NCBI GenBank assembly: GCA_002419055.1
Contig: DIFI01000021.1
Span: 24,102-88,101, forward strand
DNA from: Peptococcaceae bacterium UBA5752
Lineage (GTDB): Bacteria; Bacillota; Dehalobacteriia; UBA4068
Reading direction: 5' to 3'
Length of the DNA: 64,000 bases
In this document: piece after piece, positions 1,426 through 31,988 of the stretch
Position numbering within the stretch: position 1 is the first letter of the stretch
Layout of the letters: each line of letters begins with the position of its first letter
Translations under genes and position numbers: made by a program
The notes under the pieces: model-generated
What the model was told of the DNA's origin: nothing
Seen by the model: the letters and a program-made list of their open reading frames with translations, nothing else
The model's database searches: none

Positions 1426-2496
1426 ATGCATTTAAAAAACTGTTTGATACTGGCTTGTATTATATTTGGCATAGTATTTCTTCTTGGTTGTGATGCCAAA
1501 ACTGATGAAAATACTATTGCCGACTACTCTAATGAAGAGATAACTGTTTCCGGCCTTGCGGATGAGGATTTTACTGTCACTGTTGCGGACTTGGCCGCAC
1601 TGGACAGCGTTGAGCGCAGCGCTTCCGCCCAGCGCTCAAATGGAGAGGAAGTTTCTATTGACGCGGTCGGCCCCCTGTTGGATACTTTTTTAGCACAGTA
1701 TGGCAAAAGTCAGAGCGATTTTACCAGCATCCGCTTTACAGCTTTCGACAAATATTCCATTACTGTTGACAGTCAAGTGCTGGATAACAGGGAAATTGTG
1801 CTGGCGGTTGCGGATGGAGGCGATGCGCTTTCCAAAGATGACCAGCCGCTGCGGGTGGTGATACCGGGGGAGAGGGCGATGTACTGGGTTCGTCATCTTT
1901 GCCGCATTGATTTTGAAAGCGGCGAGACAACCAGTCAGTGCCGGAAGATGGTCTTTCTTTCCGCGGCAGTACAGACGCTCAAAAGCAGTGATTATGATTA
2001 TAACGGCGTAACGGATCAGGTGATTGCTGTCGGCGATTTGCTTGATGCTTATGCGGACAGTGAAAATGCCGATACGGTATCTCTGATTGCCGCCGACGGT
2101 CTGACAAAATCGGAAACCGCCGCCAACTTCCGTTCCGGGTTGCTTAAATACACGGGTGCGGATGCTCCGCGCTTTGTTGCCGATGAGCTTCCGGAAGGGA
2201 TGCAAATTTATGACTTGTTGATGATCGGTTATGGGCAGATGGAATTTCTAACGTTGGATAAACTGATTTCACTCTATGGAAACGAGGATGGTATTTTATT
2301 CTTTGATGTTACCCAAAAGGCTAACGGAGTAAGCGCGGAAAGTTATGTCTTCACTTGTCAGGATGGCAGCAGCGTTACGCTTCCCGTAGACGAGCTGCAG
2401 GATGCGACACTTTCTTTGGACGAAGAAGGCCGAGTTATTTTGCAACCTGCTAGCGGTGAGAAGGTAATTGACCTGCTGCAAATTGAGGCGAAATAA
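1426..2496 (+). CDS. Secreted lipoprotein with two tandem sulfite-oxidase/YedY-like (Oxidored_molyb-like) domains
   Basis: Lipobox FLLGC after a hydrophobic N-terminus. ATG 1426 is preferred over GTG 1420 given the upstream GGGTGGG. The motif QPLRVVIPGERAMYWVRHLCRIDF resembles the YedY/SO C-terminal strand. No Cys at the Moco-ligand position. Confidence 0.65.
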   Translation: MHLKNCLILACIIFGIVFLLGCDAKTDENTIADYSNEEITVSGLADEDFTVTVADLAALDSVERSASAQRSNGEEVSIDAVGPLLDTFLAQYGKSQSDFTSIRFTAFDKYSITVDSQVLDNREIVLAVADGGDALSKDDQPLRVVIPGERAMYWVRHLCRIDFESGETTSQCRKMVFLSAAVQTLKSSDYDYNGVTDQVIAVGDLLDAYADSENADTVSLIAADGLTKSETAANFRSGLLKYTGADAPRFVADELPEGMQIYDLLMIGYGQMEFLTLDKLISLYGNEDGILFFDVTQKANGVSAESYVFTCQDGSSVTLPVDELQDATLSLDEEGRVILQPASGEKVIDLLQIEAK

Positions 2497-3275
2497 TGAT
2501 AAAAAAACGCTGGCCATGGCTGTTAATAATAATACTGGCAGCGGTAGCAGCATATATCTCAGGCAGGCTGATGCAGCCAGCCTATACCCCTGTAATATAC
2601 ATTGTTGGCGATGTTGAGAAATGTTTAGAAACAAATGATATAGACAAGCTGGGGGATTTGCAACAGGTTGATTTTGATAGCGATACATATCAAGCGGTAA
2701 CACTTGCGGATGTTGTTGCCGCAGCGCAGCCCGCTGCACAAACCAAGAGGGTTCTGATGATTGCGGACGATGGGTTTTCGGTGGAGATAGCAGGGGATAC
2801 GCTGGATGATTGCTGGCTGACCTTTACCCCTAAAGATGGTTGGCGCGTTTTGGCTCCGCTGCATCCGCTCTCCGCCAACGGCACGCATATTTGGCGCATT
2901 GTGGTAGTTGCTGACAGTAGCAGCCAAACTGCTCTTACGGTAACTGCCGGCGGCGAAACGAGCAGCTTTACAATTGGACAATTGTATGCAGGAACAACAA
3001 TCAGCTTCCCTTATCCGGAAGGAACGGCGGAAAAGGCAACGGATGACGTTGTTTATTCCTCTACTGTCTATACCCGTCGTGATTGCCTGACATTGGCGCA
3101 GCTTGGCTGTGATGAGGCCGCTGAAATACAGATAAACGCGGCAAATGGTCAAAGTCTGACTGTGAACTCGTCCGAAACAGGGCTGTTCCAGCTGAACGGT
3201 AATAGTTTGAGTTATATCAATGCAATACAGCGCAAACAAATGGAAGATGTTGATGAAATTGTGGTACTGAAGTAA
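2496..3275 (+). CDS. N-terminally membrane-anchored protein with an SO/YedY-like half domain
   Basis: TAATG overlap with the upstream gene (translational coupling). N-terminal TM WPWLLIIILAAVAAYI. Motifs VTLADVV...VLMIADDGFSVEIAGD...THIWRIVVV. Confidence 0.55.
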   Translation: MIKKRWPWLLIIILAAVAAYISGRLMQPAYTPVIYIVGDVEKCLETNDIDKLGDLQQVDFDSDTYQAVTLADVVAAAQPAAQTKRVLMIADDGFSVEIAGDTLDDCWLTFTPKDGWRVLAPLHPLSANGTHIWRIVVVADSSSQTALTVTAGGETSSFTIGQLYAGTTISFPYPEGTAEKATDDVVYSSTVYTRRDCLTLAQLGCDEAAEIQINAANGQSLTVNSSETGLFQLNGNSLSYINAIQRKQMEDVDEIVVLK

Positions 3276-3351
3276 TTTTTTTACCGTTGTATATTCTTTT
3301 GTGAGAATAGTTTTGTACGCAAATAATAAAAAATAGTTTTTAGGAAAGATA

Positions 3352-5274
3352 ATGAACAAATTTAATTTCAAATCACAATGTTTATATAGTTCTAACATAA
3401 AATTGGTGACAATTGCCTTGCTAATGATTGCATTAATTGTTTTTGCTTGGCCTGCACAGCCAGCTTCGGCGGCTAATGCTTTGACCGTGCAGGTGAGCAA
3501 AGGCGGTGAAATCGCAAAAGTTGCAAGCTACAGCAAAGAAGATCTGGAAGCGCTGGGTACGGTGCAGCAGTATTATTCTTCGGTGGATGCTAACAGTGCA
3601 CCGGTAGTAGTTGTGGCGCGCGGCGTGGCCATATCTACCCTGATGGCCGATTTGGGTATTAATATCGCGGATGCTGAAACTTTGCGCTTTGCTTCCTCTG
3701 ACGGCGGCAACCGCAGCTATAGCGTAGCGACTTATGTTTCCGCAGCACGTTATTATTATCCGCAGATTGTAGACGGTTACGATGCGGATGCCGATGAAAT
3801 TCCGGCATTCGTAGCCGGTGCTGATCAAGAAAAAGTTAAAGTCAGCGCTATGTTGGCATTAGCCAGCTATGAAGGACGCTATCAATCGAAGCCAGACGCT
3901 TCACAAATGAGCTCTGCCAATGGTTTACGATTTTGCTATGGGCAAAGCGCTATTAACGAAGCGGTTTCCCTTAATTACAACAAATATATAAACAGCCTGA
4001 CTATTGTCCTCAAAAGCAGCAGTAGCTATCAACTGCCCGAAGAAGATGAGAGCAGTGGAGAAAGCAGCGGTGATACTGCCATACCCAGTACCGGTATTCC
4101 GGAAGTTCTGGATAGGGAAGGATTGATGGCGGATACGCTGACCATCACTGTGGGCTATTACGGCGGTACATATTATACAAAAAAGGTTTTTACCTTGGAA
4201 GAACTGCAGGCCATGGCCAATGTGCAGCAGGTATATAGCTGTATCGATAATATGCCGGCGGTATGTCTGGATGCAGCGGTTGGCGTGAGGCTAACGGATA
4301 TATTGGCGGCGGCTGGTATAGATGTCAATTCAGTGCAGAGCTTCCACTTTTATTGTGCGGATGTCTCCCGAACTTGGTATACGTCCATGAGTAAAACATA
4401 TTTGCTCGATACGCCGCGTTATTATTATCCTAATTTGCCGAAAAGCTGGGATTATGATGAAGCTAAGGCTATTTCCGGCGCGACTGCCGGTGCGCGGGAG
4501 GTTGATGTTATCTTAGCACTGCAGGATAAATGGCGGCGTTTTGCTATGGAAACGGATTATAGTGATCTTACCGATACAACCCGCTTTCGCTTGCTGTTCG
4601 GCCAAAGTGACGTCTATACCGTGGAGGGCTCCCGTTCCGCCAAATGGGTACATACCATAGCCGTCACGCTGGGCGGATCACCACCCAAGGGTGTTACTCT
4701 TAACGCCTCTGCTTTGGATCTGACAGTTGGCAGTGATTATCAGCTTTCCGCTACAGTGGAAAAGACAGATCAAACCACCGATACCCGCGTCATCTGGAGC
4801 AGCAGTGACGAAGATATTGTTTCCGTAGATAAATCAGGCAATATTACGGTTAAGGGCGACGGTCAAGCTACCGTTACCGCTACTACTGTTTTCGGTGGAT
4901 TGACTGCCACTGTGGTGATAAACGGCAGCACCGATGCGGCTGACAGTACCGCCACCGGCAGCAGTACCAATACCAATGGCAGTAACACAACCGGCGGCAG
5001 TAATTCTACGGAGGGCAAGGAGGATACCGATTCTGCTGATGCGGCGCAGACCGAAACCGGCGGCGTATATCGTATTTCGGTAGGTGGCTCGGATACAGCG
5101 AATAGTGAGGCAGGTGTTCAAAGGTGGCGGGACAGTGAAATGGCTGCCAACGCGGTAGCGCTTCCGGATATAGAAACGGATAGTCCTTTGATGAGGATTA
5201 CATTAATTGCAATACTGGCTTTATTTATAGTCGGTATTCTTGGCAGAATAATTATTTATCGTTTGGAGGTATGA
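3352..5274 (+). CDS. Secreted 640-aa surface protein: two RYYYP-type domains, Big_2 domain, S/T/G/N-rich linker, C-terminal TM anchor
   Basis: Signal peptide ending ASA/AN. Motifs ARYYYPQ and PRYYYPNL. Big_2-like VTLNASALDLTVGSDYQLSA...VTATTVFGGLTATVVI. C-terminal LIAILALFIVGILGRIIIYRLEV. Confidence 0.75.
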   Translation: MNKFNFKSQCLYSSNIKLVTIALLMIALIVFAWPAQPASAANALTVQVSKGGEIAKVASYSKEDLEALGTVQQYYSSVDANSAPVVVVARGVAISTLMADLGINIADAETLRFASSDGGNRSYSVATYVSAARYYYPQIVDGYDADADEIPAFVAGADQEKVKVSAMLALASYEGRYQSKPDASQMSSANGLRFCYGQSAINEAVSLNYNKYINSLTIVLKSSSSYQLPEEDESSGESSGDTAIPSTGIPEVLDREGLMADTLTITVGYYGGTYYTKKVFTLEELQAMANVQQVYSCIDNMPAVCLDAAVGVRLTDILAAAGIDVNSVQSFHFYCADVSRTWYTSMSKTYLLDTPRYYYPNLPKSWDYDEAKAISGATAGAREVDVILALQDKWRRFAMETDYSDLTDTTRFRLLFGQSDVYTVEGSRSAKWVHTIAVTLGGSPPKGVTLNASALDLTVGSDYQLSATVEKTDQTTDTRVIWSSSDEDIVSVDKSGNITVKGDGQATVTATTVFGGLTATVVINGSTDAADSTATGSSTNTNGSNTTGGSNSTEGKEDTDSADAAQTETGGVYRISVGGSDTANSEAGVQRWRDSEMAANAVALPDIETDSPLMRITLIAILALFIVGILGRIIIYRLEV

Positions 5275-5275
5275 C

Positions 5276-5908
5276 ATGTTTGCGGAAAATTTAAGTGTTG
5301 CCCTACGGGCAGTGGCAGAAAACCTGCGTAGTCCGGTGATGTGTATTCTGCTGCTGTTGATCATAATAGCGGTAGTAATGTTTGGCTCCATGATAGCGGA
5401 GATTTTTACCGAAAGAATGCGGCTCAAGGCAAAGATGCCCCGATTGGTGGATGATATTAAAGACGAAGATAAAGAGTTGGCGGATACTATCGAAAAAAGC
5501 GGATTGCTCAAGCGTCAGAAGAATGCCTTATTGGAATTGATAATTCATCCGGAATTGACACCTGTGATGCGTGAAGCTTTAGCCAGACGTCTGATTTTTG
5601 AGGAGCAGAACCATTATGACCGGATCGTTAAAATCACTGATTTGATTTCGCGGCTTGGCCCGATGCTGGGTCTGCTTGGTACGCTGATCCCCTTGGGGCC
5701 GGGGCTGATTGCCTTAGGACAGGGAGATACATATTCTTTATCTCAATCCCTGCTTACTGCCTTTGATACAACCATTGCAGGTTTGGCCTCAGCCGTACTG
5801 GCTTTTGTGATATCCGCTATCCGTAGGAGCTGGTACGAAAACTATATGACGATGCTCGAAGCTTTGATGGAATGTATATTGGATAGGGAGGCCGGCCATG
5901 CAAAATAG
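5276..5908 (+). CDS. MotA/TolQ/ExbB-family proton-channel protein (3 TM)
   Basis: GGAGGT RBS. The start lies 1 nt after the upstream stop. Family signature LGPMLGLLGTLIPLGPGLIALGQGD...LLTAFDTTIAGLASAV. Topology is TM1, cytoplasmic loop, TM2-TM3. Confidence 0.75.
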   Translation: MFAENLSVALRAVAENLRSPVMCILLLLIIIAVVMFGSMIAEIFTERMRLKAKMPRLVDDIKDEDKELADTIEKSGLLKRQKNALLELIIHPELTPVMREALARRLIFEEQNHYDRIVKITDLISRLGPMLGLLGTLIPLGPGLIALGQGDTYSLSQSLLTAFDTTIAGLASAVLAFVISAIRRSWYENYMTMLEALMECILDREAGHAK

Positions 5909-6221
5909 TTTAAGAGGCGGCGGCTTGCGAAGCGGCCGTACGCAAAGTGATTTTAATCCTATGGATGGTTTGGCTAATTTGGCCGACTGTATGCTGGTTT
6001 TGGCCTGTGGCCTGCTGCTTTCGTTGATTGTCAGCTGGAATCTGGATATCGCGGTGGACGAAACCGTGGCAAGTCCCAACGAAAGCGCTGTTAGCGAGGT
6101 AGATGGCGTGGAGAATAGCGATCTAAATTCCATAGATGAGAACAGCGGTTATAAGGAAATGGGAAAGGTTTATAAAGACCCAAAGACCGGGCAGCTTTAT
6201 ATGGTAATAGATGATAAATGA
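5898..6221 (+). CDS. ExbD/TolR-like single-pass protein with short acidic C-terminal domain
   Basis: Overlaps the exbB-like stop (ATGCAAAAT at 5898, with GGGAGG upstream). FNPMDGLANLADCMLVLACGLLLSLIV resembles the ExbD N-terminus/TM. The periplasmic part is only ~55 aa and D/E-rich. Confidence 0.55.
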   Translation: MQNSLRGGGLRSGRTQSDFNPMDGLANLADCMLVLACGLLLSLIVSWNLDIAVDETVASPNESAVSEVDGVENSDLNSIDENSGYKEMGKVYKDPKTGQLYMVIDDK

Positions 6222-6240
6222 TAAAGGGGGAAGGGATATT

Positions 6241-8229
6241 ATGAAAAAGATCAAGGGTATATTACTGGTATTATTGACATTGTCGCTGGTGCTTTTTGTA
6301 GCTCTGCCGGCTATGGCAATTGACCCGGTGGAGCCCAGCGACACTCTGGAAGTCTGCCTTAAAACGGCGGACGGTACAGTAACGCTGCATACTTACACAT
6401 TGGCCGAGATGGAGGCCCTAGCAGACGGGGAGGATATCTGCTATTCCGGTATTGATGCCATGCCATGCACGGTAAAAACCGTGGCCAGCGGCGTTTATAT
6501 CGAGGATCTTTTGGATGATGTAGCGCAGTATACCACTATGGACGTATGGGATTTTTCTAAGCTGCGTTTCACATCTACCGATGGCGCGACAGGCATCTTT
6601 ACCGAAGACGATCTCTTCTGCGACCGCTATTATTTTGCTGCACTTCACGAAGAAAGCGGCGGGCTAAATGAAGATGGTTTAGTAGATTACGATTATGGAG
6701 AGGGCGAATTGGTTCAGCCAATGCTTTCCATCAGTGCCGAGCAGGGTCGCCGTCCGATGCCGTCAGAATTCCGCGATGATTATAACCCGGAGCGCTATAC
6801 CATTCTTTTTGGTATAACTGAGGATGAAGTAGAAAACGCTACCCAGCGCGTTTCTCAGTACAAGCGCGGCGTATATAAAATGGTTATTGATCTGGGCAAT
6901 GTATCCGCGCCTCAAGTGGCTGTAACGGGCATTGCTCTTGATAGAACCAGCGACAAGGTTTATACCGGCAAATCGATCCAGCTTACAGCTATCATTAGTC
7001 CGAGTGATGCGACTAATACGGGGGTTACCTGGAGCAGCAGTGATCAGTCGGTAGCGAAGGTATCTTCCACAGGGGTTGTCACAGGGGTTGCCACAGGAAC
7101 AGTTACTATCATCGCTACAGCTGCCGGAAATACCGCATTTAGTGCATCCTGTAACGTAACCGTATCCAACCGGAGCGTATCGGTTTCGGGCGTTTCTTTA
7201 AGCCAAAGCAGCCTGTCATTGGGAGTAGGCGGTAAAAAAGAGCTGACCGCCACCGTACTGCCCGGCAATGCCGACGAGCGCGACGTGACTTGGTTAAGCA
7301 GCAATGAAAAAGTTGCAACTGTCGATGACGGTATGATCACTGCCGTTGCCGTGGGTCAGGCTACTATAACCGTCGAGACCTCTGACGGCGGTTACACCGC
7401 TGTATGCACGGTTACCGTCACAAATGAGGCGATTGCCGTCACCGGAGTGACGCTGAACCGTACTGCCGTATCACTAGCCAAAGGCAGCAGCTTCCAGCTT
7501 GTTGCCAATTTCAGTCCGGAGGGCGCTTCCAATATGGCTGTTGTTTGGAGCAGCAGCGCACCGGGCGTTGTTGCAGTGGATACCAATGGCCTACTTACTG
7601 CAAAGAATATCGGAACCTCGACTATTACCGTTCTGACAAGTGAAGGCAGCTTTACCGCGCAATGTCTGGTAAAGGTTGCGGATTCGGTCGAAGCTTTCAG
7701 TGATATATCGGGTAATTGGGCGAAGACGTATATTGAAAGCATGGTGGATGCAGGATTTATTAGCGGCTATACTGACGGCAGCTTCCGTCCTATGGCTAAC
7801 ATTACCCGTGCTGAATTCATAAGCATACTCATCCGCATCCTTCAAAGCGCCAAGGGTGAAACATTGCAAACAGGGCATGTATTTAACGATACGTCAGCAC
7901 ATTGGGCTAAGGACTATATTTCCACCGCGGTAGCACTTTCGATTACTTCCGGCTACGGCAACGGTAATTTTGGCCCCAATGACCCAATCACCCGCGAGCA
8001 GATAGCAGTAATGCTGACCAAGGCTGCGGATTCAAGCGGCAGCACCACCGCCACCAGCTTCACCGATGTAGCTAAGATTTCCTCCTGGGCGGTTTCTTCT
8101 GTTGCTTATGCTGCGGAACAGGGATGGATCAGTGGCTACAGCAATGGCAGCTTTGGTCCGCAAAGACAAGCCACCAGAGCAGAAGTATGTGCGTTACTCT
8201 GGCGTTTTTATCAACAGATCAATGGTTAA
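6241..8229 (+). CDS. SLH-anchored surface protein: RYYYP-type domain, 4x Big_2, 3x SLH
   Basis: ATG 6241 after GGGGGAAGGG. Signal peptide ...ALPAMA. Four repeats of the type VTGIALDRTS...VTWSSSD...ATGTVTI. Three C-terminal SLH motifs (FSDISGNWAKTYIE.., FNDTSAHWAKDYI.., FTDVAKISSWAV..). Confidence 0.85.
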   Translation: MKKIKGILLVLLTLSLVLFVALPAMAIDPVEPSDTLEVCLKTADGTVTLHTYTLAEMEALADGEDICYSGIDAMPCTVKTVASGVYIEDLLDDVAQYTTMDVWDFSKLRFTSTDGATGIFTEDDLFCDRYYFAALHEESGGLNEDGLVDYDYGEGELVQPMLSISAEQGRRPMPSEFRDDYNPERYTILFGITEDEVENATQRVSQYKRGVYKMVIDLGNVSAPQVAVTGIALDRTSDKVYTGKSIQLTAIISPSDATNTGVTWSSSDQSVAKVSSTGVVTGVATGTVTIIATAAGNTAFSASCNVTVSNRSVSVSGVSLSQSSLSLGVGGKKELTATVLPGNADERDVTWLSSNEKVATVDDGMITAVAVGQATITVETSDGGYTAVCTVTVTNEAIAVTGVTLNRTAVSLAKGSSFQLVANFSPEGASNMAVVWSSSAPGVVAVDTNGLLTAKNIGTSTITVLTSEGSFTAQCLVKVADSVEAFSDISGNWAKTYIESMVDAGFISGYTDGSFRPMANITRAEFISILIRILQSAKGETLQTGHVFNDTSAHWAKDYISTAVALSITSGYGNGNFGPNDPITREQIAVMLTKAADSSGSTTATSFTDVAKISSWAVSSVAYAAEQGWISGYSNGSFGPQRQATRAEVCALLWRFYQQING

Positions 8230-8259
8230 CGGGTAAATGTTTACCGGAAAGGAGCAGAT

Positions 8260-9687: not shown

Positions 9688-9704
9688 GGAAGGGGGATCA
9701 GCAA

Positions 9705-11402: not shown

Positions 11403-11463
11403 CTTAGTTGATTATACTCTGCCTTAATATAGATCAAAAAAAAAATTTAAGGAGTGATAGAAA

Positions 11464-14400
11464 GTGTTACAAAAGTTGAAGAAAAAGAACCTGACGGTGT
11501 TAGTAATCTTCATAATGGTTCTAGCCCTTTGCGTTGCTTTACCGATTCTGGCGACAGCGGAAGGCACTGCGACCGTTACAGTGGGCAGTACGACTACAGC
11601 AGCAGCTCCCGGAGATAGTATAACCATCCCCGTTGTCATTACCAGTAACCCCGGTATTACTGCATATGGATTTGCGATTTCGTATGATAGCTCAAATTTG
11701 ACATTGGATAGTATTTCGAAAACGGATAATGATTCGAATACGACCGATCTTTGCACTTCCGGTAGTTTTACCCCCAATACAGCATCTGCAGGCACTGGCT
11801 ATGTTAGCTGGCTGGATGGCGGTGCGGATATTACCGGCACCGGAAATTTGTTCTATTTAACTTTCACCGTCAAGAATACTGCGATGGGTGGCAATTATGC
11901 TGTTTCCTGCACTTTAACCGACGGTAGTGCTGCTAACTGCAAAAACTATGCCGGGTCAAATGTTGGCGTATCCTTCACTGACGGCATTATTGAGGTAGTA
12001 GCACCCGACACAACCGCTCCGACAATGACGAGCGTTGCTCCTGGCGAGGGCTTAGTAGCGCTGGGCGCTAGCGATAACCTCGTGCTTACCGTAACGGCAG
12101 ATGACGACGCGGCGCTTTCCGAGCTGGAGATCGACCACAGCATGGAGGGCACGCTGCCGGAATTCAGCGTCTACGCCGACATTGCGAACCCCTACGGCAC
12201 GGCAGATGATAAAGCTCAGTTTGAATCTGCCGGTGTTTCCGTAACCTACGCTGATGGCGTTTGGACGATTGATTTTGGCAGCACGATAACGAATACTATA
12301 GTGAATAACGGCGGCATCACCTTTTACATGGTGCTCAAGGATACGTCCGGCAACAGCTGGGGCAGCATGAGCCCGACTACTGCCGAGAATACCTATGCCT
12401 ATACCATAGCGCGGGACACAACCGCTCCGACTATGACAAGCGTTGAACCGGCTGAAGGCGCGGTGGAGCTGGACGCCAGCGAGGACTTTGTACTGACCGT
12501 GACGGCGCATGACGATATTGAGCTGTATGAGCTTGAGATCGACCACAGCATGTCAAGCACATTGCCGGAATTCAGCGTCTACGCCAACAGCGAAAACCCC
12601 TATGGCACAGCTGAGGATAAAGCTGAATTTGAAGCCGCCGGTGTTTCCGTGACCTACGGCGGCGGCGTCTGGACGATCGATTTTGGCGATACAGCAACGG
12701 ATGCTTTCGTGGCAAACGGCGGCATAACCTTATACATAGTAGTCAAGGATATGGCCGGCAACAGCTGGGGCAGCATGAGCCCGACTACTGTCGAGAATAC
12801 ATATGCATACACGATTACCCGCAAATACATTGCGGCGGCTAATTTCACTGACGGAGTCTATGCAATTACATCGGGCGGCGAATATAAGCTCGCTACTGAT
12901 GCGGCAGGGACGATTCAGATCAGCACCACCGATCCGGTGACTATTAGCGGCAATGGCACGACCGGCACCGCTAACAGTGGCCTTAGCATTGATAATACCG
13001 TAGCTGGTGCGGACCTGACCATAGAAGACCTCTATATCACCGGCGCAGTTACCGGTTCCGGTATGGTTGAATTTACCGGCAAAGACAATAAACTGTCGCT
13101 TTCCGGTGTCAGCACCCTTCAACGTATCGGAGGATCAGTTTGGGGCAATGCACTGATCCATGTGCCTGCGACTGCTGATCTGACCATTGACGGCGACGGT
13201 ACAGTCTATCTGGCCCAAGATGGCGACGGTGCTGCCATCGGCGGCAATCCTTCCGAGATCAACGGTAATATCACTATTAACGGAGGCGAAATCTTCTGCC
13301 GCAGTAATAAAACAGGCTCCAGCATCGGCGGCGGCCAGAGCGCTAACGGTGGTAATATTACCATCAACGGCGGTGAACTCAATATATTCCACAACGCGCG
13401 CGGCGCCATTTTGGGCGGCGGCGGCTATAGTGGCAGTTTAGTAGGCAACGGCGGTACTGTAACCATGACCGGCGGCAATGTCTCCCTGTTTGTAAATTTC
13501 ACAGGCGCGGCCATTGGCGGCGGCGGCGGGAGCAATTCTGCTCTGGAGCAGGACGGAGGAGACCTTTATATCACCGGCGGCTCGCTCAAAACCTATATCA
13601 ACAGCAATGCACTCAGTTTCTGGGGACTCACAACCGAAGGCGTCACGCCTGTTATCATCACCGCGGATAAATCAACCGGCGTGGGCGGAAATGCAGTCCA
13701 TCTGCTTACTATGGATGTGAGCGGTGTTACGGCCAATGACACCGGCGCCGCTTATGTGGCTTATCTGGATAATGAAACCACCGATCCCATTTATTCCGGT
13801 GGGTTGCACAGCTATGCTTATACCGGTACCAGCACCAACGCTATGACATATTGGCAGAAGTCTACCACGGATAACAACCTCTACCTCTATGTCACCGGTG
13901 AGAATCATACTGTCACCGTTAATGATCAAAAATTCAATGTCACTTGGGATTCCGGCACTTCCGGCTTCAGTGTTGCGGCGGCTCCTAAAATCTGGGATGG
14001 CACTGCGAATACAGGTTGGTATAATACCACTGATACGGAATTCCATCTCACCATGGGTAACCAACTGGCCGGACTTGCGCAGATCGTCAACGGTACGGCA
14101 ACCGGCATCACTCAAGACAGTTTCAGCGGCAAGACCGTCAATATTGATAACGATATCTATCTTAACGACGGTACAACCAGTAATAATTGGACGCCTATCG
14201 GTGATATTACACACCATTTTGACGGTGTGTTTAACGGCGGCGGCTACAATATATACGGTATGAAAATTATTGCAACAAAGGGCTATGCCGGTTTATTCGG
14301 CAACGTATCCGGTACAGTTAAGAACTTTAAACTTTACGGATCTGTTACTATTAATTCGGCGATTGACGGCGATATTGCAAAAGGTAGTAAAACTAATACC

Positions 14401-17400
14401 GATAACGACTTTGTCGGTGCGGCAGTTGGTAAACTCAATGCGGGCGGTACGATCAGTAACGTCATCAACTATGCTCCCATTGAAGCCAAGGAATGCATGA
14501 ACGTCGGCGGTATCGTCGGTTTTGTCGGCACGCCCGTCACGTATGGGACGAAATCAGACGCTTATGCCGAATATAACTCCAACCCCTCCGGCAGTAACAC
14601 CTATGTGCTCAACTGCGGCAATAACGCCACTGTACATGGTTTTTACAAGCTGGGCGGTATCGCCGGTGAAAGCGCGGGTATTGTTATGTACTGCTACAAT
14701 ACCGGCTACATCCTCCCGCACATGCACGGTTCCGGCGGCGGCTGGGGCGGCATTGTCGGACGCAACGGCAACAACAACACAGCGACCGAGGTCGGCACCA
14801 TTGCCTATTGCTGGAACAGCGGTACAGTTACCGACAACGGCATGAACGATGACCACAACGAGACGATCAAGTGGTATGGCGGTATCACTGCCTTTTGCAA
14901 CAGTAAGTCTTCTGTACACAACTGTTACAACATCGGCGCAATTCCTGCCGGACGCAACACTTTTTCGTCCATCATTGGTAACTGCGAAAGCACTATGGTT
15001 TACAACAACTGTTCGCTGATTTCCACCAGCATCAATAGCGACAGCACATATGAGAAAAACTTGGGCATACAGTTTGAGGAATCTGATTTCAAGAGCGCTG
15101 CCAATACGGATACCTCTATATTGACTGTGCTGGGCCCTGTTTTTGTCGCTGATACCGGAAATATTAACAACGGATATCCTGTCCTGCGCTGGCAGGCGGG
15201 CAGCAGCGCCGAACCGACGCTAACCTCTGTTTCGTTATTCTCGGTGCCGACAAAAATCGCTTATTATGAGCTGGAGACCTTTAATCCTGCAGGTATGAAG
15301 CTTAAAGCAACATACAGTGACGGAACTTATGCAATATTATCGGGCGGCTTCACTTATCCCACCGATCCGTTGTCTGACAGCACTAACAGCGTTACCGTTA
15401 GCTATGGCGGTTTTGATATTACTCAAGCCATCACGGTCTACAATCTCGATTCTATCGCTGTTACCACACAGCCTACCAAAACGGTTTACAATGCCACCGA
15501 TTTATTTAACAGATCCGGTATGGTAGTTACCGTTTACTACAGCGATAATACTTCGAAGGTGATTTATTCATATACTTATCCTACAACTCCTTTAACTGAT
15601 GACATGACCAGCGTTACTATCGGCTATGGCGACAAGACCACTACCCAGCCGATCACGGTCAATGCTTTAGGCTTGACCGTGATCGCGGTAACAACTGTGC
15701 CGACCAAGACTTTCTATCTCCCCGACGAATCATTTGATAATACCGGTATGGTAGTTAATGCAACATATAACAGTGCAGTGGTACAGCCTTTGGCTGCGGA
15801 AGACTACGTCGTCACTCCCGCCTCACTGACCATTGGTACAACTGCGGTCACCATCAGCTTTACCTATCTTGGCGTAACTCAGACCGCGTCTACTCCGGTG
15901 ACAGTGATATCTGCAACACCTGCCTTGGTTGACGGGTATTATCAGATAGTGAGCGCAGATGATCTTCGCTGGTTCGCCGATTATGTGAGCGTCCAGGGCA
16001 ATACAACTGCCTGCGCCAAGTTGGTCAATGATATTACCCTCACCTCTGATTGGACGCAGCCGATCGGTAACAGTACCAATAAGTTTGCCGGTACTTTTGA
16101 CGGTAACGGCAAGACGATCAGCGGCCTAGATAATGCTGCGGTGACCACACAGAATTTTGGTCTTATTGGCTATGGCTTAGGGGCTACTGTCAAAGACCTT
16201 ACAGTCGGCGGCGAAATCAGCACGACCGCCTCTAATACCGGTTTGGTTGCCGGTTGGGCCGACGGTTGCACTTTTACCAATATCACAGCCAACGGTTCGC
16301 TGACCAGAGCCAGCGGTACCCTAAACAATACTGCCGGTATCACAGGTTACGCCTGCAATGCCAGCGTATTAACTAACTGCGTGAACAATGCCGCTATTAC
16401 CTCCGGCGGTCAGTATACAGGCGGTATCGCCGGCAGCGCAGACGGCGCGACCAGCTTCTCCGGCTGTATCAATAACGGTGTGATCAATACTACCCATCGG
16501 TATATAGGTGGCATCGTCGGTTCGTTCGGCGGTACGGGCAACATCACATCCTGTATCAATAAAGGTGCAGTTACTGCCACCTATAACGTTGGTGGTATCG
16601 CCGGTAGATATAACTCAACCGGCAGCATGGAGAATTGCTATAACAGCGGTGCCATCGTCGCTACCTTATCATCAACATCTACTGCTTACGCTGCAGGCGG
16701 CGTGATCGGTTATTTCGGCGGCGCCGGTACTATAGACACCTGCTACAACAGCGGTGATGTCACCGGCGCTATCGGTAATGTCGGCGGTGTGGTCGGCTGT
16801 ATGTATGCGGCCAATAGCATACTGACCAACAGTTATAATACCGGCGACGTCTGTTACACCGGCAATGCCACTACTCCTTGCGTGGGCGGCGTTGTTGGCG
16901 CGACCAATGATGTTAGCTGCACGATCCAGAACTGTTACAACCGCGGCGCGGTAACCTTTGCTACAACCAAACCTTTGATCGGCTCCGTCGTCGGTACACC
17001 CAAGATCGGATATACCGCCATCAGCAATAACTATTATCTCAACACCACTTCTGCTGATGCGACATCTACAGCCAAAACTGCCGCTGAACTGAAGAATCTT
17101 GCTGCCACTTTGGGCGCAAGCTACAAGGCAGGCGGCATTTCACCTATCTTCACCTGGCAGCCGGATGAAGTATTTACCTCCGCAGCACCGGTAGTGAACG
17201 TAGATACTGTTACCGCCGATGTTCCGGATACGATCGTCATTGGCGCTAATGCCAATGTGGAAATCAACGCTTCGGCGGTGACTGTGGAAGATATCAACAC
17301 ATCAAATGTTTCAATTCCCGCAGCTTTGGTTGAGAATCTGGACAATGCCCAATCAGTCACCATTGTGACCAACATGGGTAATATCACATTTGACAACGCT

Positions 17401-19356
17401 GCTCTTGCTGATATTGTGGATAACGCTACCACGTCCCTGACCTTAGGCCTCGATCGAACCAGCGATGCGGACGGTGTTACGGTATATGAGCTGACGCTCA
17501 AAGACAGCGGCGGCAATAATGTCTTTACCGAAGGCTCCGCTACAGTCACATTGCCTTATACCCTGGCCGAAGCAAAAAGCCCTGATAGCGTCAAGGTTTT
17601 CTATGTGGCGAGCAACGGTACCAAGACAGAAGTGACCAATTGTACCTATGCCAACGGTTACGTCACTTTCACAGTTGAGCACTTCTCCACATACAGCATC
17701 GAGGCAGACAGCACCACAATCTCCGCAATTACCGCTGCCACTAATGCCAACGCCGGTGAAACCTTTACCGTCGATGTCAAGGTCAGCGGCGATGCAGCTC
17801 AGCAGTTTGCTTCCATGTCCGCCAATCTCAATTATGATAAGACCAAAGTAGCATTTGTAAGCTTTGCTGCGGGGGCCGGTACAACTGAAGCCAGCGCCTA
17901 TGATAATACAACTACCGCCAAGGTAAATATCCTCGAAAGCGGTGCGGATAAGACCATCGGCGCCGACGGCTTTGTGATCGGCACAATCACTTTCCGTGCC
18001 TTGACTGCCATCAGTACCGGCAATAGTGTTGCAGCTTTCTCTATCAGTGACGGTATGGTTGGTGATTCCGGTACACCGACTCCTGCGGTAAGCGCTTTGA
18101 GCGGTGCCAATATTTCCGTCAATTTGCATAATCTGGCGGTTATCTTCCAACAAGGCACGGGCAACACGCTGGCCGCTTCTACCGCATATGCCAAGTACAA
18201 TGCGGCGGGTCTCTTCGCCAGCAATGCCTATACCGATACTTTCACTATTCCTACTCCGGCAGCCTCTGATGGCTACCGCCTGGCGGATATCCTCTGGAAT
18301 AACGGTACCAACAATTACACTTCCGAACAGGTTGCGGCATTGGCTATAACCGCCAATGCGACCATGACTGCGCAATCAGTCAAAACCTACGCTGTAAGTT
18401 TCTATAATAGCGACGCCGCCCAGATAGGCAGCACCCAGAATATAGATACCGGCCTGACTGCCACTGCTCCGGCTGATCCTACTGCCCCGGCGGGCACTGC
18501 TTTTGTCGGTTGGTTTATAGCAGCCTCCAGCGACGCCACCTATGACGGCATTGCCACTCTCTACAGTAAAGCCCAGATTGACTTAGCTGCGGTGACTGCC
18601 GATACCATTTACAAAGCCTATTATTCAGATAATGAGTATGCGATCACCGTTCCTGTCGATGTGACCGTCGTCAGCGGCGTTACCGACAGTAAAGCCAAGC
18701 ACAACACTGACGTAGTCTTCACTGTCAGCACCACCACTGTGGATCAAGGTTATACCATCACTGTTTCCTATAAGGTAGGTACGGCTGATGCAGTAATCAT
18801 CACGAAGGATGCAGAGAACAAGTACACCATCCCCGGCTCTGCTATAACTGATGCGACAGTGATCACAGTCCAGAAAACGATCAACGGCACAATCAGCTAT
18901 ATCAACTATGACAATTACAAAGGCGCACCGGCCAATTATAAAGTGGCTCTGCTGACACTTAGCGACAGCGCTCCTGCGGATAGCAAATACCAGTATGACG
19001 GACAGGATATGTTTTTGGCTCAACCGGTCAATACTACTGCCGCATATGGTACCGGCGCCTACGTATTCTTCGTCGCCTCTGATGAGGATGCGGTGACTAC
19101 GTTATCCAAGATTGCGATTGTCAGCGGCACACAGCTGACTGTCGACTATGACGGAAACGTCAACGGTCTGAGTGAGGTAGAAATCAATGACGCGCAGTTG
19201 GTCTATGATTTGTATAATAATAACACCAATTATTCGTCCGACTTCAATCTCGCCACGATGCTGATGCGCTTTGAAGCCGATGTCAACGGCGACGGCACAA
19301 TCGGCGTCAACGACATCAGAATGATCTACAGCACTATCCGCGGTATCACTGAGTAA
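11464..19356 (+). CDS. Giant 2630-aa secreted multidomain protein: cohesin-like, 2x137-aa tandem repeats, Gly-rich beta-helix, 2 GLUG modules, Ig-like repeats, second cohesin-like, dockerin
   Basis: GTG start 9 nt after AAGGAG. Signal peptide. N-terminal cohesin-like GDSITIPVVITSNPGITAYGFAISYDSSNLTLDSI...NLFYLTFTVKNTA. Repeated GG[IV][AV]G...C[YI]N.GA[IV] GLUG periodicity. C-terminal DYDGNVNGLSEVEINDAQL / DVNGDGTIGVNDIRMI dockerin. A single uninterrupted ORF. Confidence 0.85.
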   Translation: MLQKLKKKNLTVLVIFIMVLALCVALPILATAEGTATVTVGSTTTAAAPGDSITIPVVITSNPGITAYGFAISYDSSNLTLDSISKTDNDSNTTDLCTSGSFTPNTASAGTGYVSWLDGGADITGTGNLFYLTFTVKNTAMGGNYAVSCTLTDGSAANCKNYAGSNVGVSFTDGIIEVVAPDTTAPTMTSVAPGEGLVALGASDNLVLTVTADDDAALSELEIDHSMEGTLPEFSVYADIANPYGTADDKAQFESAGVSVTYADGVWTIDFGSTITNTIVNNGGITFYMVLKDTSGNSWGSMSPTTAENTYAYTIARDTTAPTMTSVEPAEGAVELDASEDFVLTVTAHDDIELYELEIDHSMSSTLPEFSVYANSENPYGTAEDKAEFEAAGVSVTYGGGVWTIDFGDTATDAFVANGGITLYIVVKDMAGNSWGSMSPTTVENTYAYTITRKYIAAANFTDGVYAITSGGEYKLATDAAGTIQISTTDPVTISGNGTTGTANSGLSIDNTVAGADLTIEDLYITGAVTGSGMVEFTGKDNKLSLSGVSTLQRIGGSVWGNALIHVPATADLTIDGDGTVYLAQDGDGAAIGGNPSEINGNITINGGEIFCRSNKTGSSIGGGQSANGGNITINGGELNIFHNARGAILGGGGYSGSLVGNGGTVTMTGGNVSLFVNFTGAAIGGGGGSNSALEQDGGDLYITGGSLKTYINSNALSFWGLTTEGVTPVIITADKSTGVGGNAVHLLTMDVSGVTANDTGAAYVAYLDNETTDPIYSGGLHSYAYTGTSTNAMTYWQKSTTDNNLYLYVTGENHTVTVNDQKFNVTWDSGTSGFSVAAAPKIWDGTANTGWYNTTDTEFHLTMGNQLAGLAQIVNGTATGITQDSFSGKTVNIDNDIYLNDGTTSNNWTPIGDITHHFDGVFNGGGYNIYGMKIIATKGYAGLFGNVSGTVKNFKLYGSVTINSAIDGDIAKGSKTNTDNDFVGAAVGKLNAGGTISNVINYAPIEAKECMNVGGIVGFVGTPVTYGTKSDAYAEYNSNPSGSNTYVLNCGNNATVHGFYKLGGIAGESAGIVMYCYNTGYILPHMHGSGGGWGGIVGRNGNNNTATEVGTIAYCWNSGTVTDNGMNDDHNETIKWYGGITAFCNSKSSVHNCYNIGAIPAGRNTFSSIIGNCESTMVYNNCSLISTSINSDSTYEKNLGIQFEESDFKSAANTDTSILTVLGPVFVADTGNINNGYPVLRWQAGSSAEPTLTSVSLFSVPTKIAYYELETFNPAGMKLKATYSDGTYAILSGGFTYPTDPLSDSTNSVTVSYGGFDITQAITVYNLDSIAVTTQPTKTVYNATDLFNRSGMVVTVYYSDNTSKVIYSYTYPTTPLTDDMTSVTIGYGDKTTTQPITVNALGLTVIAVTTVPTKTFYLPDESFDNTGMVVNATYNSAVVQPLAAEDYVVTPASLTIGTTAVTISFTYLGVTQTASTPVTVISATPALVDGYYQIVSADDLRWFADYVSVQGNTTACAKLVNDITLTSDWTQPIGNSTNKFAGTFDGNGKTISGLDNAAVTTQNFGLIGYGLGATVKDLTVGGEISTTASNTGLVAGWADGCTFTNITANGSLTRASGTLNNTAGITGYACNASVLTNCVNNAAITSGGQYTGGIAGSADGATSFSGCINNGVINTTHRYIGGIVGSFGGTGNITSCINKGAVTATYNVGGIAGRYNSTGSMENCYNSGAIVATLSSTSTAYAAGGVIGYFGGAGTIDTCYNSGDVTGAIGNVGGVVGCMYAANSILTNSYNTGDVCYTGNATTPCVGGVVGATNDVSCTIQNCYNRGAVTFATTKPLIGSVVGTPKIGYTAISNNYYLNTTSADATSTAKTAAELKNLAATLGASYKAGGISPIFTWQPDEVFTSAAPVVNVDTVTADVPDTIVIGANANVEINASAVTVEDINTSNVSIPAALVENLDNAQSVTIVTNMGNITFDNAALADIVDNATTSLTLGLDRTSDADGVTVYELTLKDSGGNNVFTEGSATVTLPYTLAEAKSPDSVKVFYVASNGTKTEVTNCTYANGYVTFTVEHFSTYSIEADSTTISAITAATNANAGETFTVDVKVSGDAAQQFASMSANLNYDKTKVAFVSFAAGAGTTEASAYDNTTTAKVNILESGADKTIGADGFVIGTITFRALTAISTGNSVAAFSISDGMVGDSGTPTPAVSALSGANISVNLHNLAVIFQQGTGNTLAASTAYAKYNAAGLFASNAYTDTFTIPTPAASDGYRLADILWNNGTNNYTSEQVAALAITANATMTAQSVKTYAVSFYNSDAAQIGSTQNIDTGLTATAPADPTAPAGTAFVGWFIAASSDATYDGIATLYSKAQIDLAAVTADTIYKAYYSDNEYAITVPVDVTVVSGVTDSKAKHNTDVVFTVSTTTVDQGYTITVSYKVGTADAVIITKDAENKYTIPGSAITDATVITVQKTINGTISYINYDNYKGAPANYKVALLTLSDSAPADSKYQYDGQDMFLAQPVNTTAAYGTGAYVFFVASDEDAVTTLSKIAIVSGTQLTVDYDGNVNGLSEVEINDAQLVYDLYNNNTNYSSDFNLATMLMRFEADVNGDGTIGVNDIRMIYSTIRGITE
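12004..12825 (+). repeat. Two tandem ~411-nt (137-aa) near-identical coding repeats inside the giant gene
   Basis: PDTTAPTMTSVAPGEG...NTYAYTIA and RDTTAPTMTSVEPAEG...NTYAYTIT. High amino-acid identity; the nt-level similarity is visible by eye. Confidence 0.7.
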
Positions 19357-19384
19357 ATGCAGTAAGTAAGTTAGGAGAATACAA

Positions 19385-20722
19385 ATGAAACGATTTACAA
19401 TTACTATTATCGTTTGCATATTGATCTTTGCTTTGAGTATCTCCACCGCTTTGGCTGTTGATAACAGCAGAACATATTCTTTTCAACTCACCTCCAATGG
19501 CAGCAGTACTGCTGCCATTGGAGTGGGGGATATGATTACGGTGAAGTTTACTCTGGCGGCAGACAACAGCTATGCTTTGTATGCGATGCAGAATGAGATT
19601 AAGTATGACAGCCGCTATTTGCAATATGTTGATGGAAGCCTTAGTATGACCTCCGGTTTTAATTCCGGCTTTCGGGATATGGAGGATGGCATCAATAAAC
19701 TGGTGCTGATGAATTATGTTTCCGATACAGCAGAGGGAGAAACCATAAACTCCAGTGTCGTGGTGGGAACCTTCCAGTTGAAGGCCATCGCTAATGGAAC
19801 TTCGACTGTCAGCAACGAGGATTATTATTGCACAACCAAAACCGGTGCAAATAATTACACTGCTACCGCCAGTGATCTTATTGTCAACATTAAATCTTCC
19901 GGCGGCGGTGGCGGCGGTAGTAGTGTCACTTATTACACCATCAACGCCAGCGCCGGCGAGGGTGGCAGCATATCGCCTTCCGGCAGCGTCAGCGTAGCTC
20001 AGGACGGTTCACAAACTTTCACTATAAACCCCAACTATAGATATATTATAGAAGACGTACAGGTAGATGGCAAAAGCGTCGGCGACGTCAGCACATATGC
20101 CTTCTCCGCTGTCACTGCCAACCACACCATAAAAGCAACGTTCATTGCGGGAGAAGAGGAGCCAAACCTCACCGATCAATTCACCGACCTTGTCCCCGGC
20201 GCCTGGTATATAAACGGCATCAATTATGTTTTGCAGGCTGGACTGTTTAACGGTACCTCGGCAACCAGATTTAGTCCTGATGCCAATATGACGAGATCTA
20301 TGCTGGTAACGGTATTGTGGCGTTTAGACGGCACGCCTGACGCAACAGTAGACACCATCTTTAATGATGTGGCAGACGGTCTCTGGTACAGCGACGCTAT
20401 CGAATGGGCTGCGGCCAATAATATCGTCAACGGCTATGGCAACGGTAGGTTCGGTACCAATGACAGCATCACGCGCGAACAGATGGCGGTAATCTTATAT
20501 AACTATGCCAAAATTAAAGGTTACGATGTCAGCCAAACCACTTCACTCAGCAAATACACCGACACCGGCGATATTTCCGATTGGGCCAGCACAGCTATGG
20601 CCTGGGCCAATGCTACCGGCCTTGTCAACGGACGCACCGCTACAACTCTCGCTCCCGGCGGTACTGCCACAAGAGCTGAAGTTGCTACGATCTTAATGCG
20701 CTTTATCGAATATTACGTTTAA
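19385..20722 (+). CDS. Anchoring scaffoldin-like protein: cohesin-like domain + InlB-B-repeat-like middle domain + 3x SLH
   Basis: AGGAG RBS and a signal peptide. Cohesin-like MITVKFTLAADNSYALYAMQNEIKYDSRYLQYVDGS. Gly8 linker. Three SLH motifs (FTDLVPGAWYING.., FNDVADGLWYSDA.., YTDTGDISDWAST..). Confidence 0.85.
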   Translation: MKRFTITIIVCILIFALSISTALAVDNSRTYSFQLTSNGSSTAAIGVGDMITVKFTLAADNSYALYAMQNEIKYDSRYLQYVDGSLSMTSGFNSGFRDMEDGINKLVLMNYVSDTAEGETINSSVVVGTFQLKAIANGTSTVSNEDYYCTTKTGANNYTATASDLIVNIKSSGGGGGGSSVTYYTINASAGEGGSISPSGSVSVAQDGSQTFTINPNYRYIIEDVQVDGKSVGDVSTYAFSAVTANHTIKATFIAGEEEPNLTDQFTDLVPGAWYINGINYVLQAGLFNGTSATRFSPDANMTRSMLVTVLWRLDGTPDATVDTIFNDVADGLWYSDAIEWAAANNIVNGYGNGRFGTNDSITREQMAVILYNYAKIKGYDVSQTTSLSKYTDTGDISDWASTAMAWANATGLVNGRTATTLAPGGTATRAEVATILMRFIEYYV

Positions 20723-21011: not shown

Positions 21012-21515
21012 TTAGCGCCGGCGAATGATTCCACAAGCAATTTTAGGGCCTGATTTACCCGCGGGCTGTGTTGTAAAATCGTCGGGAGATCTGTGTAGCA
21101 CTACGGTTCGTCCGATTACTTCGGCAACGGTAAAGCGGTTGGTTAATACCGACATTAGTGCAAACCCGTTATTTCCAAACAGTGGAGGAAGATCGCCGGC
21201 ATGGTGAGGATGGTCGCAGTTGCCGGGATTATAGTGCATGCCGGTATTGGCAAACGGATCCTCGGCGTTTCCTGTACAGGCCGTTCCCTCATGGATATGG
21301 AAACCGAAAACATTGCTGTTGCATGGACCCGGCTCATTCGGTAGTCCGGTGACTCTGGCTGCCAGTATTACGCCTTTTTTTGTTTGATATAAATACACAA
21401 TTCCGTTTATATCTGGAAAATCGCTGCTGCCAGACAATTTCGCCATTGCTTCAGGCGACTTTTTAAGCAGTGTCCCCATATCGATAATTCGTGGCAATGA
21501 AATCATTTTTACCAC
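21012..21515 (-). CDS. Cu/Zn superoxide dismutase family protein (SodC/YojM-like)
   Basis: Motifs GFHIHE..C..., HYNP, HPHHAGDLP, ACGII. No obvious signal peptide. Confidence 0.75.
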   Translation of the reverse strand: MVKMISLPRIIDMGTLLKKSPEAMAKLSGSSDFPDINGIVYLYQTKKGVILAARVTGLPNEPGPCNSNVFGFHIHEGTACTGNAEDPFANTGMHYNPGNCDHPHHAGDLPPLFGNNGFALMSVLTNRFTVAEVIGRTVVLHRSPDDFTTQPAGKSGPKIACGIIRRR

Positions 21516-31941: not shown

Positions 31942-31988
31942 CATTGCAGTAAATAATTATAGAGCCAAAAGATGTGGTGGTAGATATC

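Follow-up and report, generated by a model that had tools for sequence, protein, structure and literature searches.

The window described here is the whole stretch of 64,000 nucleotides that was analysed, positions 24,102 to 88,101 of contig DIFI01000021.1 from Peptococcaceae bacterium UBA5752. Near its beginning it contains a locus for secreted and surface proteins that also encodes a pair of proton-motor subunits. The locus is filled by ten co-directional open reading frames (ORFs) on the forward strand, which run from 1420/1426 to 20722 with intergenic gaps of at most about 80 nucleotides (Table 1). An earlier reading of the letters and ORF translations (the sequence-only reading) had described ten co-directional genes, and the ORF calls bear this out. 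The start of the DUF2149 gene overlaps the 3' end of the ExbB-like gene, with position 5961 as an alternative start.

Table 1. Genes of the locus and its detached eleventh member. N-domain, the SUOX-like domain shared by several of the proteins; nt, nucleotide positions in the window.
Position	Strand	Product and domain order	Family matches
1426..2496	+	Lipoprotein (lipobox LLGC) with tandem SUOX-fold domains, molybdenum-ligand cysteine absent; PruR-like predicted ligand-binding protein	N-domain copy is Pfam Oxidored_molyb, E 6.8e-10
2496..3275	+	Extracellular protein with amino-terminal membrane anchor; accompanies 1426-type gene in other loci	No Pfam match
3352..5274	+	Candidate motor-coupled receptor: signal peptide, two SUOX-like N-domains, Big_2, Ser/Thr/Gly-rich linker, carboxy-terminal transmembrane anchor	Pfam Big_2 E 1.7e-8, Oxidored_molyb E 1.2e-4
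5276..5908	+	MotA/TolQ/ExbB-family proton-channel subunit, 210 residues	PF01618 E 3e-11
5898..6221	+	DUF2149, ExbD/TolR-like single-pass subunit	PF09919 E 8.2e-12
6211..8229	+	Wall-anchored receptor: N-domain, three Big_2, three SLH	Big_2 E 1.6e-45, SLH E 4.3e-45
8260..9687	+	Secreted metallophosphoesterase: Pur_ac_phosph_N, Metallophos, carboxy-terminal dockerin (nt 9529-9672)	Dockerin_1 E 2.2e-10
9705..11402	+	Adaptor/receptor: N-domain, Fn3_assoc-like middle domain, cohesin (nt 10767-11204), dockerin (nt 11211-11378)	Dockerin_1
11464..19356, amino-terminal part	+	2630-residue surface protein: cohesin 1 (nt 11572-11907), two repeats, beta-helix-like region, Big_3	Cohesin, residues 37-148, E 1.3e-11
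11464..19356, carboxy-terminal part	+	GLUG region, cohesin 2 (nt 17728-18075), Flg_new-like repeats, probable divergent dockerin (nt 19150-19341)	GLUG E 3.9e-13; cohesin, residues 2089-2204, E 1.2e-12
19385..20722	+	Anchoring scaffoldin: signal peptide, cohesin (nt 19514-19885), small middle domain, three SLH	Cohesin, residues 44-167, E 6.4e-6 (above gathering score); SLH E 3.4e-33
23914..25296	+	Detached eleventh member: N-domain, Fn3_assoc/CHB_HEX_C_1, three SLH	N_3352a/b by phmmer, 5e-7 and 1.5e-5; Pfam SLH E 2.5e-38

Cohesin, dockerin and SLH modules

The sequence-only reading had counted four cohesins, three dockerins and three genes with triple SLH anchors. The four cohesins hold: the two in the giant protein (11464..19356) and the one in 19385..20722 are supported by Pfam, and the fourth, in 9705..11402, by structure. 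This fourth domain has no Pfam match and is homologous to the 19385 cohesin (independent E-value 1.7e-8). In an AlphaFold model of the cohesin-dockerin part of the protein, made from a 16-sequence alignment with a predicted local distance difference test score (pLDDT) of 82.7, the cohesin matches cohesin entries such as 1G1K, 6KGD and 2VO8 with a Foldseek probability of 1.00, and the dockerin superposes on 2CCL_B at 0.8 Å.

Two of the three dockerins, in 8260..9687 and 9705..11402, score above the Pfam gathering threshold. The third, at the carboxy-terminus of the giant protein, stays below it (E 0.48) and is probably a divergent dockerin, judging from its sequence: a dockerin hidden Markov model (HMM) built from the locus family with the giant protein excluded gives it 14.4 bits (independent E-value 1.7e-5 in a 10-protein database), and its second calcium loop, DVNGDGTIGVND, is canonical. 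Between 1420/1426 and 20722, triple SLH anchors are present only in 6211..8229 and 19385..20722; the third gene that carries them is the detached 23914..25296, outside the array.

The combination of a cohesin with three SLH repeats in 19385..20722 is confirmed by Pfam, and with it the likeness to the anchoring scaffoldins SdbA and OlpB. The payloads, a phosphoesterase with Pur_ac_phosph_N and Metallophos domains and the GLUG modules, are also present as read, and no glycoside hydrolase or carbohydrate-binding module (CBM) family was matched in Pfam scans of the ten genes, as had been claimed for the glycoside hydrolases. Overall, the profile searches support the cohesin and dockerin assignments, and we consider it very likely that the locus encodes a non-cellulosomal cohesin-dockerin-SLH assembly on the cell wall.

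The motor pair and its related loci

In the ExbB-like protein, the GLLGT motif and the acidic residue of AFD164TT are invariant in 22 homologues, and the MotA_ExbB match confirms this half of the ExbB/ExbD-like pair proposed before. Its partner is a DUF2149 protein that does not match Pfam ExbD; the transmembrane aspartate motif 'D.MLVL' is common to both families. The longer DUF2149 motif 'NPM..NLAD.MLVLA', which includes this aspartate, is kept in at least 90% of 80 homologues, and we take it to resemble the transmembrane segment of E. coli ExbD with its essential aspartate. By these motifs, the pair retains the residues expected of a functional proton channel. Neither TonB nor a TonB-dependent outer-membrane transporter was found in the locus or in the scanned neighbours of related loci, the hosts of which are monoderm Clostridia. 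A Zorya-like defence system was also considered and rejected, as no PADLOC model matched six proteins of the locus.

The motor had been regarded as an oddity embedded in a scaffoldin operon. Instead, it belongs to a conserved core, and the cohesin-dockerin modules are the rare part. The MotA/ExbB protein has 3349 database homologues at E ≤ 1e-5, and relatives of the motor are confirmed in at least 576 species genomes, with one genome scanned per species. Among the relatives listed, most are from Oscillospiraceae, Lachnospiraceae, Anaerovoracaceae, Peptococcaceae and Eubacteriaceae, with a few Coriobacteriia and one member of the Dehalococcoidales. ORFs were called in 84 loci and searched with the domains of the window. 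DUF2149 lies beside the ExbB-like gene in 80 of these, and an N-domain protein of the 3352b type is present in 70, where the maps mostly show it immediately 5' of the ExbB-like gene. A small 1426-type protein of about 165 residues is found in 42 loci, a giant GLUG ("G_800") protein in 40-44, SLH in 28 and the phosphoesterase in 17. Dockerins occur in only four (eight listings with the family HMM, L088 repeating L004) and cohesins in two to five; the pooled cohesin HMM recovered the 9705/19385 type only and missed the cohesins in the giant proteins of relatives, so that the cohesin counts are lower bounds. The core is thus made up of the motor, a receptor anchored by its carboxy-terminus, a small SUOX-fold protein and a giant GLUG protein, and is found mostly in Clostridia. 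The 1426-type gene followed by the 2496-type gene (N_1420a-C_1420b and g2496) recurs in L012, L018, L023, L024, L029 and L031.

The surface proteins are attached differently in different lineages. Orthologues of the phosphoesterase, the 9705 receptor and the giant protein end in SLH repeats in Sporobacter (L003), L012, L029, L047, L057 and others, the phosphoesterase itself in all five of those named. In the clade of the window (Candidatus Formimonas L004/L088, L007 and L089) the orthologues end in dockerins, that of the phosphoesterase in L004, L007 and L089, and a gene for a cohesin and SLH repeats then follows. L089 is syntenic with the window gene for gene, from the phosphoesterase with its dockerin through the receptor with cohesin and dockerin and the giant protein with its dockerin to the cohesin-SLH anchor, the orthologue of 19385, which follows the giant gene. 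In these loci the genes of the array are co-localised and not scattered. Because the orthologues elsewhere end in SLH, the cohesin-dockerin layer is best described as a lineage-specific substitute for SLH anchoring; L013, L040 and L067 contain independent uses of dockerins or cohesins. In Syntrophomonas wolfei (L087, CP000448, 2261144-2282247), genes for phosphoesterase, SLH, SUOX-fold, 2496-like, Big_2 and Shr-like HID proteins are clustered and no MotA/ExbB or DUF2149 gene was found within 10 kb; surface proteins of this kind can therefore exist without an adjacent motor.

Three further gene families recur in related loci directly 5' of the receptor gene, identified by Pfam as a FecCD permease, an ATP-binding cassette (ABC) ATPase and a Peripla_BP_2 binding protein, with the permease and the binding protein in 39-40 loci. 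The best match of the permease in the PDB is the molybdate/tungstate importer HI1471 (MolB, 6.7e-63), followed by HmuU (8e-49) and BtuC (1e-35). Other neighbours are also related to molybdenum and tungsten (Mo/W). Genes for modA (TIGR01256, 6.6e-65 and 2.6e-56) and modB lie beside the Sporobacter (L003) and Formimonas (L004) loci and adjoin L067 too. The Anaerovoracaceae loci (L022-type) contain two XdhC-family maturation factors for aldehyde oxidoreductases, a DVU_1551-type NTP transferase and an AFOR-like gene. In L025 there is a genuine AFOR, a tungsten aldehyde oxidoreductase (E 2e-111), along with a MOSC protein and a member of the ThiF family, and the giant protein of this locus (1997 residues) itself contains Oxidored_molyb domains. 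In Candidatus Formimonas warabiya (L004/L088, CP017634), a co-directional ECF-type transporter (a PF09819 S-component-like protein, two ATPases and CbiQ) is located directly 5' of the locus, where other lineages have the FecCD importer. Immediately past this transporter comes a divergently oriented modABC operon, accompanied by a ModE-like gene.

Rfam scans of 57 related loci revealed 13 RF01055 aptamers for the molybdenum or tungsten cofactor (Moco/Tuco), with scores of 38-72 bits, in ten loci: three in L025, two in L003 and one each in L005, L011, L019, L035, L055, L079, L081 and L089. All are on the coding strand and nearly all are immediately 5' of an operon start, and their placement is far from random. 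In L005 and L035 they precede an operon of receptor, ExbB, DUF2149, small protein and giant protein; in L025, L055 and L079 an operon with importer genes and motor; in L003 an operon that begins with the phosphoesterase; and in L089, the locus syntenic with the window, the operon as well. In L003, L019 and L025 the gene for the giant protein has a Moco riboswitch of its own, and in L011 about 2.2 kb of unlabelled sequence separate the aptamer from the ExbB-like gene. An alignment of six Moco aptamers made with MAFFT was too rough for a covariance model and a sequence-pattern pre-screen was used, which gave both true and false candidates, those in L065 and L068 being unconfirmed. L089 also contains a c-di-GMP-I riboswitch (11716-11806, forward strand, 53.5 bits) directly 5' of the giant cohesin/GLUG gene; the matching position in the window is a gap of only 61 nucleotides.

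One alternative, in line with the sequence-only reading, is that the locus builds a cellulosome-like scaffold on which adhesins and a phosphatase are presented, so that the cell can attach and scavenge phosphate, with the ExbB/ExbD pair unrelated or accessory. The domains on which this builds (cohesin, dockerin, SLH, GLUG and Metallophos) are genuine, and a c-di-GMP-I riboswitch such as that before the L089 giant gene is common for clostridial adhesins. However, what is conserved is the motor pair together with the SUOX-fold proteins, the cohesin-dockerin modules being rare, and a scaffold for attachment leaves no role for the Moco riboswitches or the FecCD importer; we consider it unlikely. 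The sequence-only reading saw the scaffold, the absence of carbohydrate-active enzymes (CAZymes) and the motor pair correctly, but its emphasis on the scaffold was misplaced and the Mo/W and importer context lay outside its view.

In about half of the loci the motor has a giant adhesin-like gene as its neighbour, which suggests as a second alternative that the motor moves or exports the giant surface proteins, like GldLM/SprB gliding, type IX secretion or AglRQS, with the SUOX-like domains being structural. Motors of the MotA/ExbB family power adhesin movement and secretion in other phyla (PMC8986121). Secretion or track components were not seen, though, and control by Moco riboswitches and the importer are left unexplained, which makes this idea highly improbable.

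The SUOX-fold domain and a proposed function

The N-domain was identified by all-against-all comparison. It is present once each in 1426..2496, 6211..8229, 9705..11402 and 23914..25296 and twice in 3352..5274; 2496..3275 looks related to it, by sequence pattern only. What had been called a novel domain is instead a SUOX/PruR-type fold without the cysteine, present in six genes. Fifty homologues were gathered and 43 sequences, including the query, were aligned. The model of the domain has a pLDDT of 92.4, and its closest solved relatives are PruR, the top structural match, and the Moco domains of sulfite oxidases. In the 43-sequence alignment the family is devoid of the molybdenum-ligand cysteine, and the signal peptides of the N-domain proteins are of the Sec or lipoprotein type, none being twin-arginine; on both grounds the proteins should reach the surface without cofactor. 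Residues D110, Y112 and W156 are invariant in the family and may correspond to N102, Y104 and W160 of PruR, an exported Cys-less SUOX fold in which a pterin is held between the Tyr and the Trp in a truncated Moco site (PMC11194511). When the PDB was searched by sequence with the N-domain proteins, only Big_2 and dockerin matches were obtained, and a profile search with the N-domain reached the SorA Moco domain only. Residues 51-150 of 3352..5274 match NCBIfam NF041762, 'GEGP motif-containing diheme protein' (E 5e-8, far below the cutoff), which suggests that the fold is fused to c-type cytochromes elsewhere.

The top structural match also speaks for PruR-DcpA-like pterin sensing, in which the SUOX-fold domains on the surface would detect pterins that cells excrete, with the motor relaying a signal that controls adhesion. 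PruR controls biofilm formation via a membrane partner (PMC11194511), the giant genes are adhesin-like and there is the c-di-GMP riboswitch in L089. The locus contains no diguanylate cyclase, phosphodiesterase (GGDEF, EAL) or kinase partner, however, and its association with an ABC importer and with Moco riboswitches speaks for uptake, so that we judge sensing very unlikely.

If the locus serves uptake, the ligand could be heme, an iron chelate or a corrinoid, and the system would be the Gram-positive counterpart of the Bacteroidota hmu operon. Such operons carry MotA/ExbB and DUF2149 proteins (HmuU and HmuV; PMC10434189, PMC12094164), FecCD/Peripla_BP_2 importers typically carry heme, siderophores or B12, and some orthologues contain Shr-like HID domains. 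On the other hand, no cobalamin riboswitches were found in the 57 loci, against 13 Moco riboswitches, and genes for NEAT, HmuY, HmuR and CobN-like proteins were not found in the locus or the scanned relatives. The receptor fold is SUOX/PruR, and the HID module is absent from the window. The riboswitch classes and the result of the fold search led us to downgrade heme or B12 uptake, which we now hold to be quite unlikely. The N-domain itself was also considered as the hemoglobin-interacting domain (HID) of Shr, as orthologues list PF07550; this was rejected because HID is a separate module of 82 residues, which is located at residues 413-487 in L003 and in S. wolfei and is absent from the window proteins in a direct scan.

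Four lines of evidence, the RF01055 riboswitches, a cofactor-binding fold, a chelate-type importer and the Mo/W genes in the neighbourhood of related loci, lead us to lean towards a proton-motive-force-coupled apparatus for Mo/W acquisition on the surface of a monoderm bacterium. Judging from the SUOX/PruR fold and the class of the importer, the form acquired is more likely to be a Mo/W species that is pterin-bound or otherwise chelated. Several observations weigh against this function. PruR-type folds bind small pterins, not Moco. The MoeB-like and mod genes near some loci suggest that the cofactor is synthesised by the cell itself, contrary to cofactor salvage; because of these nearby mod and ThiF-family (possibly MoeB-like) genes, acquisition of the metal is favoured over salvage of the cofactor. 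The best named family of the binding protein is the heme protein IsdE (1e-13, far below the cutoff), and the carboxy-terminal region of the receptor 3352..5274 is poorly conserved in sequence. In the window, no riboswitch was matched at E ≤ 1 (positions 1-26000 scanned), no importer gene lies beside the locus and there is no Mo/W gene in the 64 kb. Finally, only ten of the 57 scanned loci carry RF01055, and since part of these loci had been chosen by the pattern pre-screen, ten in 57 is not an unbiased frequency.

An apparatus for Mo/W acquisition could be arranged as follows. The SLH anchor 19385 would hold the giant protein through the dockerin of the latter, and the two cohesins of the giant protein would in turn hold the phosphoesterase (8260) and the 9705 receptor. 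Distal SUOX-fold domains would bind the ligand, which the phosphoesterase would trim, and the ligand would then be handed inward to the membrane-anchored receptor (3352). As TonB does for outer-membrane receptors, the proton motor might pull or rotate this receptor and so release the ligand to the importer; TonB-dependent uptake is the model from which we infer this role for the motor. Expression would be off when Mo/W cofactor is plentiful: Moco riboswitches are said, on the authority of Regulski et al. in 2008, to be usually off-switches for genes of molybdenum uptake and cofactor biosynthesis. More tentatively, monoderm Clostridia may own a functional analogue of the Ton system, in which a MotA/ExbB-DUF2149 motor of the 5:2 type works on a wall-spanning receptor with a carboxy-terminal anchor and strips a pterin-bound Mo/W cofactor, or another Mo/W chelate, off the SUOX-fold receptors on the surface for an ABC importer. 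We regard this as a possibility, and a rather doubtful one.

In the open-access literature we found neither a Gram-positive ExbB system nor a surface system controlled by Moco riboswitches, nor any description of the cluster, and within that literature the core cluster appears undescribed, as the sequence-only reading had supposed for the system. If Mo/W acquisition is its function, it would show how strict anaerobes get molybdenum and tungsten, which are limiting for formate, aldehyde and purine metabolism, in sulfidic habitats, and would be the first job for a Ton-like motor in cells that lack an outer membrane. The more tentative Ton analogue, if real, would be the first energised uptake through a Gram-positive wall and the first bacterial salvage system for Moco or a Mo chelate, and could account for the function of HmuU and HmuV in Bacteroidota.

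Surroundings of the locus and comparison with known systems

The genes around the array are unrelated to it. Upstream lies a gene for a DUF6320 protein; downstream, Cu/Zn superoxide dismutase, lipase and formiminotransferase genes are followed by rimP-nusA-infB and other housekeeping genes, and the first three, together with a tRNA gene, separate the array from the detached 23914..25296. The superoxide dismutase (21012-21515, reverse strand), directly 3' of the locus, is of the secreted type, and the host is from an anaerobic methanogenic enrichment. A lysine-rich ORF of 44 codons (MGDKNIKKEAKKKKK...) at 920-1054 on the forward strand, annotated as a gene in the source record too, is followed at about 1134-1170 by a hairpin and a T-run, just 5' of the locus. 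The palindrome TTGACGTGTGTCAA (AATTGAC-GTGT-GTCAATT, 18 nucleotides) is located at 1364-1381, about 45 nucleotides 5' of the first gene; it is unique in the window, with 0.07 occurrences expected by chance, and resembles a Crp/Fnr-type site. It is absent from every related locus, though 22 of these encode Crp-type regulators, and a role as shared operator is therefore unsupported. At 31974-33827 on the forward strand, an ORF of 617 residues is a fusion of the TruB pseudouridine synthase with a bifunctional riboflavin kinase/FAD synthetase; these are usually encoded by two adjacent genes. In a second metagenome copy of the contig (L002, sample 3300000568), the 6211, 9705 and giant genes are split into several broken ORFs, which suggests frameshifts or assembly errors in that copy.

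The surface assembly resembles the cellulosomes of C. thermocellum (SdbA, OlpB, OlpA/OlpC) in its cohesin-SLH anchor and in its cohesin and dockerin modules. It differs in lacking CAZymes and CBMs, its payloads being SUOX-fold receptors, a phosphoesterase and a giant GLUG protein, and in that the scaffold is an optional replacement for SLH repeats inside another conserved system. The cohesins and dockerins of C. perfringens NanJ/NagJ and of Archaeoglobus are also non-cellulosomal. Those modules join secreted glycoside hydrolases, whereas here proteins of an uptake-type cluster linked to riboswitches are attached to the wall by them; cohesins and dockerins have thus been taken up as exchangeable wall anchors in a setting other than polysaccharide breakdown. 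This aspect is a new instance of a known phenomenon; the conserved system of motor and SUOX-fold receptor is the more interesting finding.

In Proteobacteria, PruR is one small protein of the periplasm and is paired with the DcpA cyclase, while in the present system the domain is multiplied on wall- or membrane-anchored proteins of Firmicutes. SUOX-family molybdoenzymes have a Mo-coordinating cysteine and are exported folded and loaded with cofactor, and both features are absent here. The Gram-positive heme relays (Isd and Shr-Shp-SiaABC) are similar in that wall-anchored receptors feed a FecCD-type ABC importer; they differ in their NEAT domains and sortase anchors, which are absent here, in the proton motor, which is added here, and in being controlled by Fur or another iron regulator where related loci have a Moco riboswitch. 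The nearest solved relative of the permease of these loci is MolB, of the MolBC-A system (HI1470-72).

Motors of the ExbB/TolQ/MotA type are thought to energise the outer membrane or the flagellum. In single-membrane bacteria they have been dismissed as vestigial, Ton components in monoderm Clostridia being regarded as likely non-functional (PMC12204202); in the present case a motor of this type forms the conserved core of a cluster found in hundreds of Clostridia from gut, rumen and digesters. With the Ton system it shares a MotA/ExbB-family subunit, a single-pass partner with a transmembrane aspartate, an adjacent receptor-bearing envelope protein and a binding-protein-dependent ABC importer. 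Unlike the Ton system, it has no outer membrane, TonB or beta-barrel receptor, the partner is DUF2149 and not Pfam ExbD, and the protein presumed to receive the force is anchored by a carboxy-terminal helix. The hmu operon (HmuYRSTUV) is the sole studied operon found in the searchable literature with a MotA/ExbB and DUF2149 pair, HmuU and HmuV. It also encodes a hemophore (HmuY), a barrel (HmuR) and a CobN-like dechelatase (HmuS) and is regulated by iron, while our locus shows only the HmuU/HmuV-type pair. The role of this pair in the Bacteroidota heme operon is described as unclear (PMC10434189, PMC12094164), and the function proposed here, if true, would provide a testable hypothesis for it in Bacteroides and Porphyromonas.

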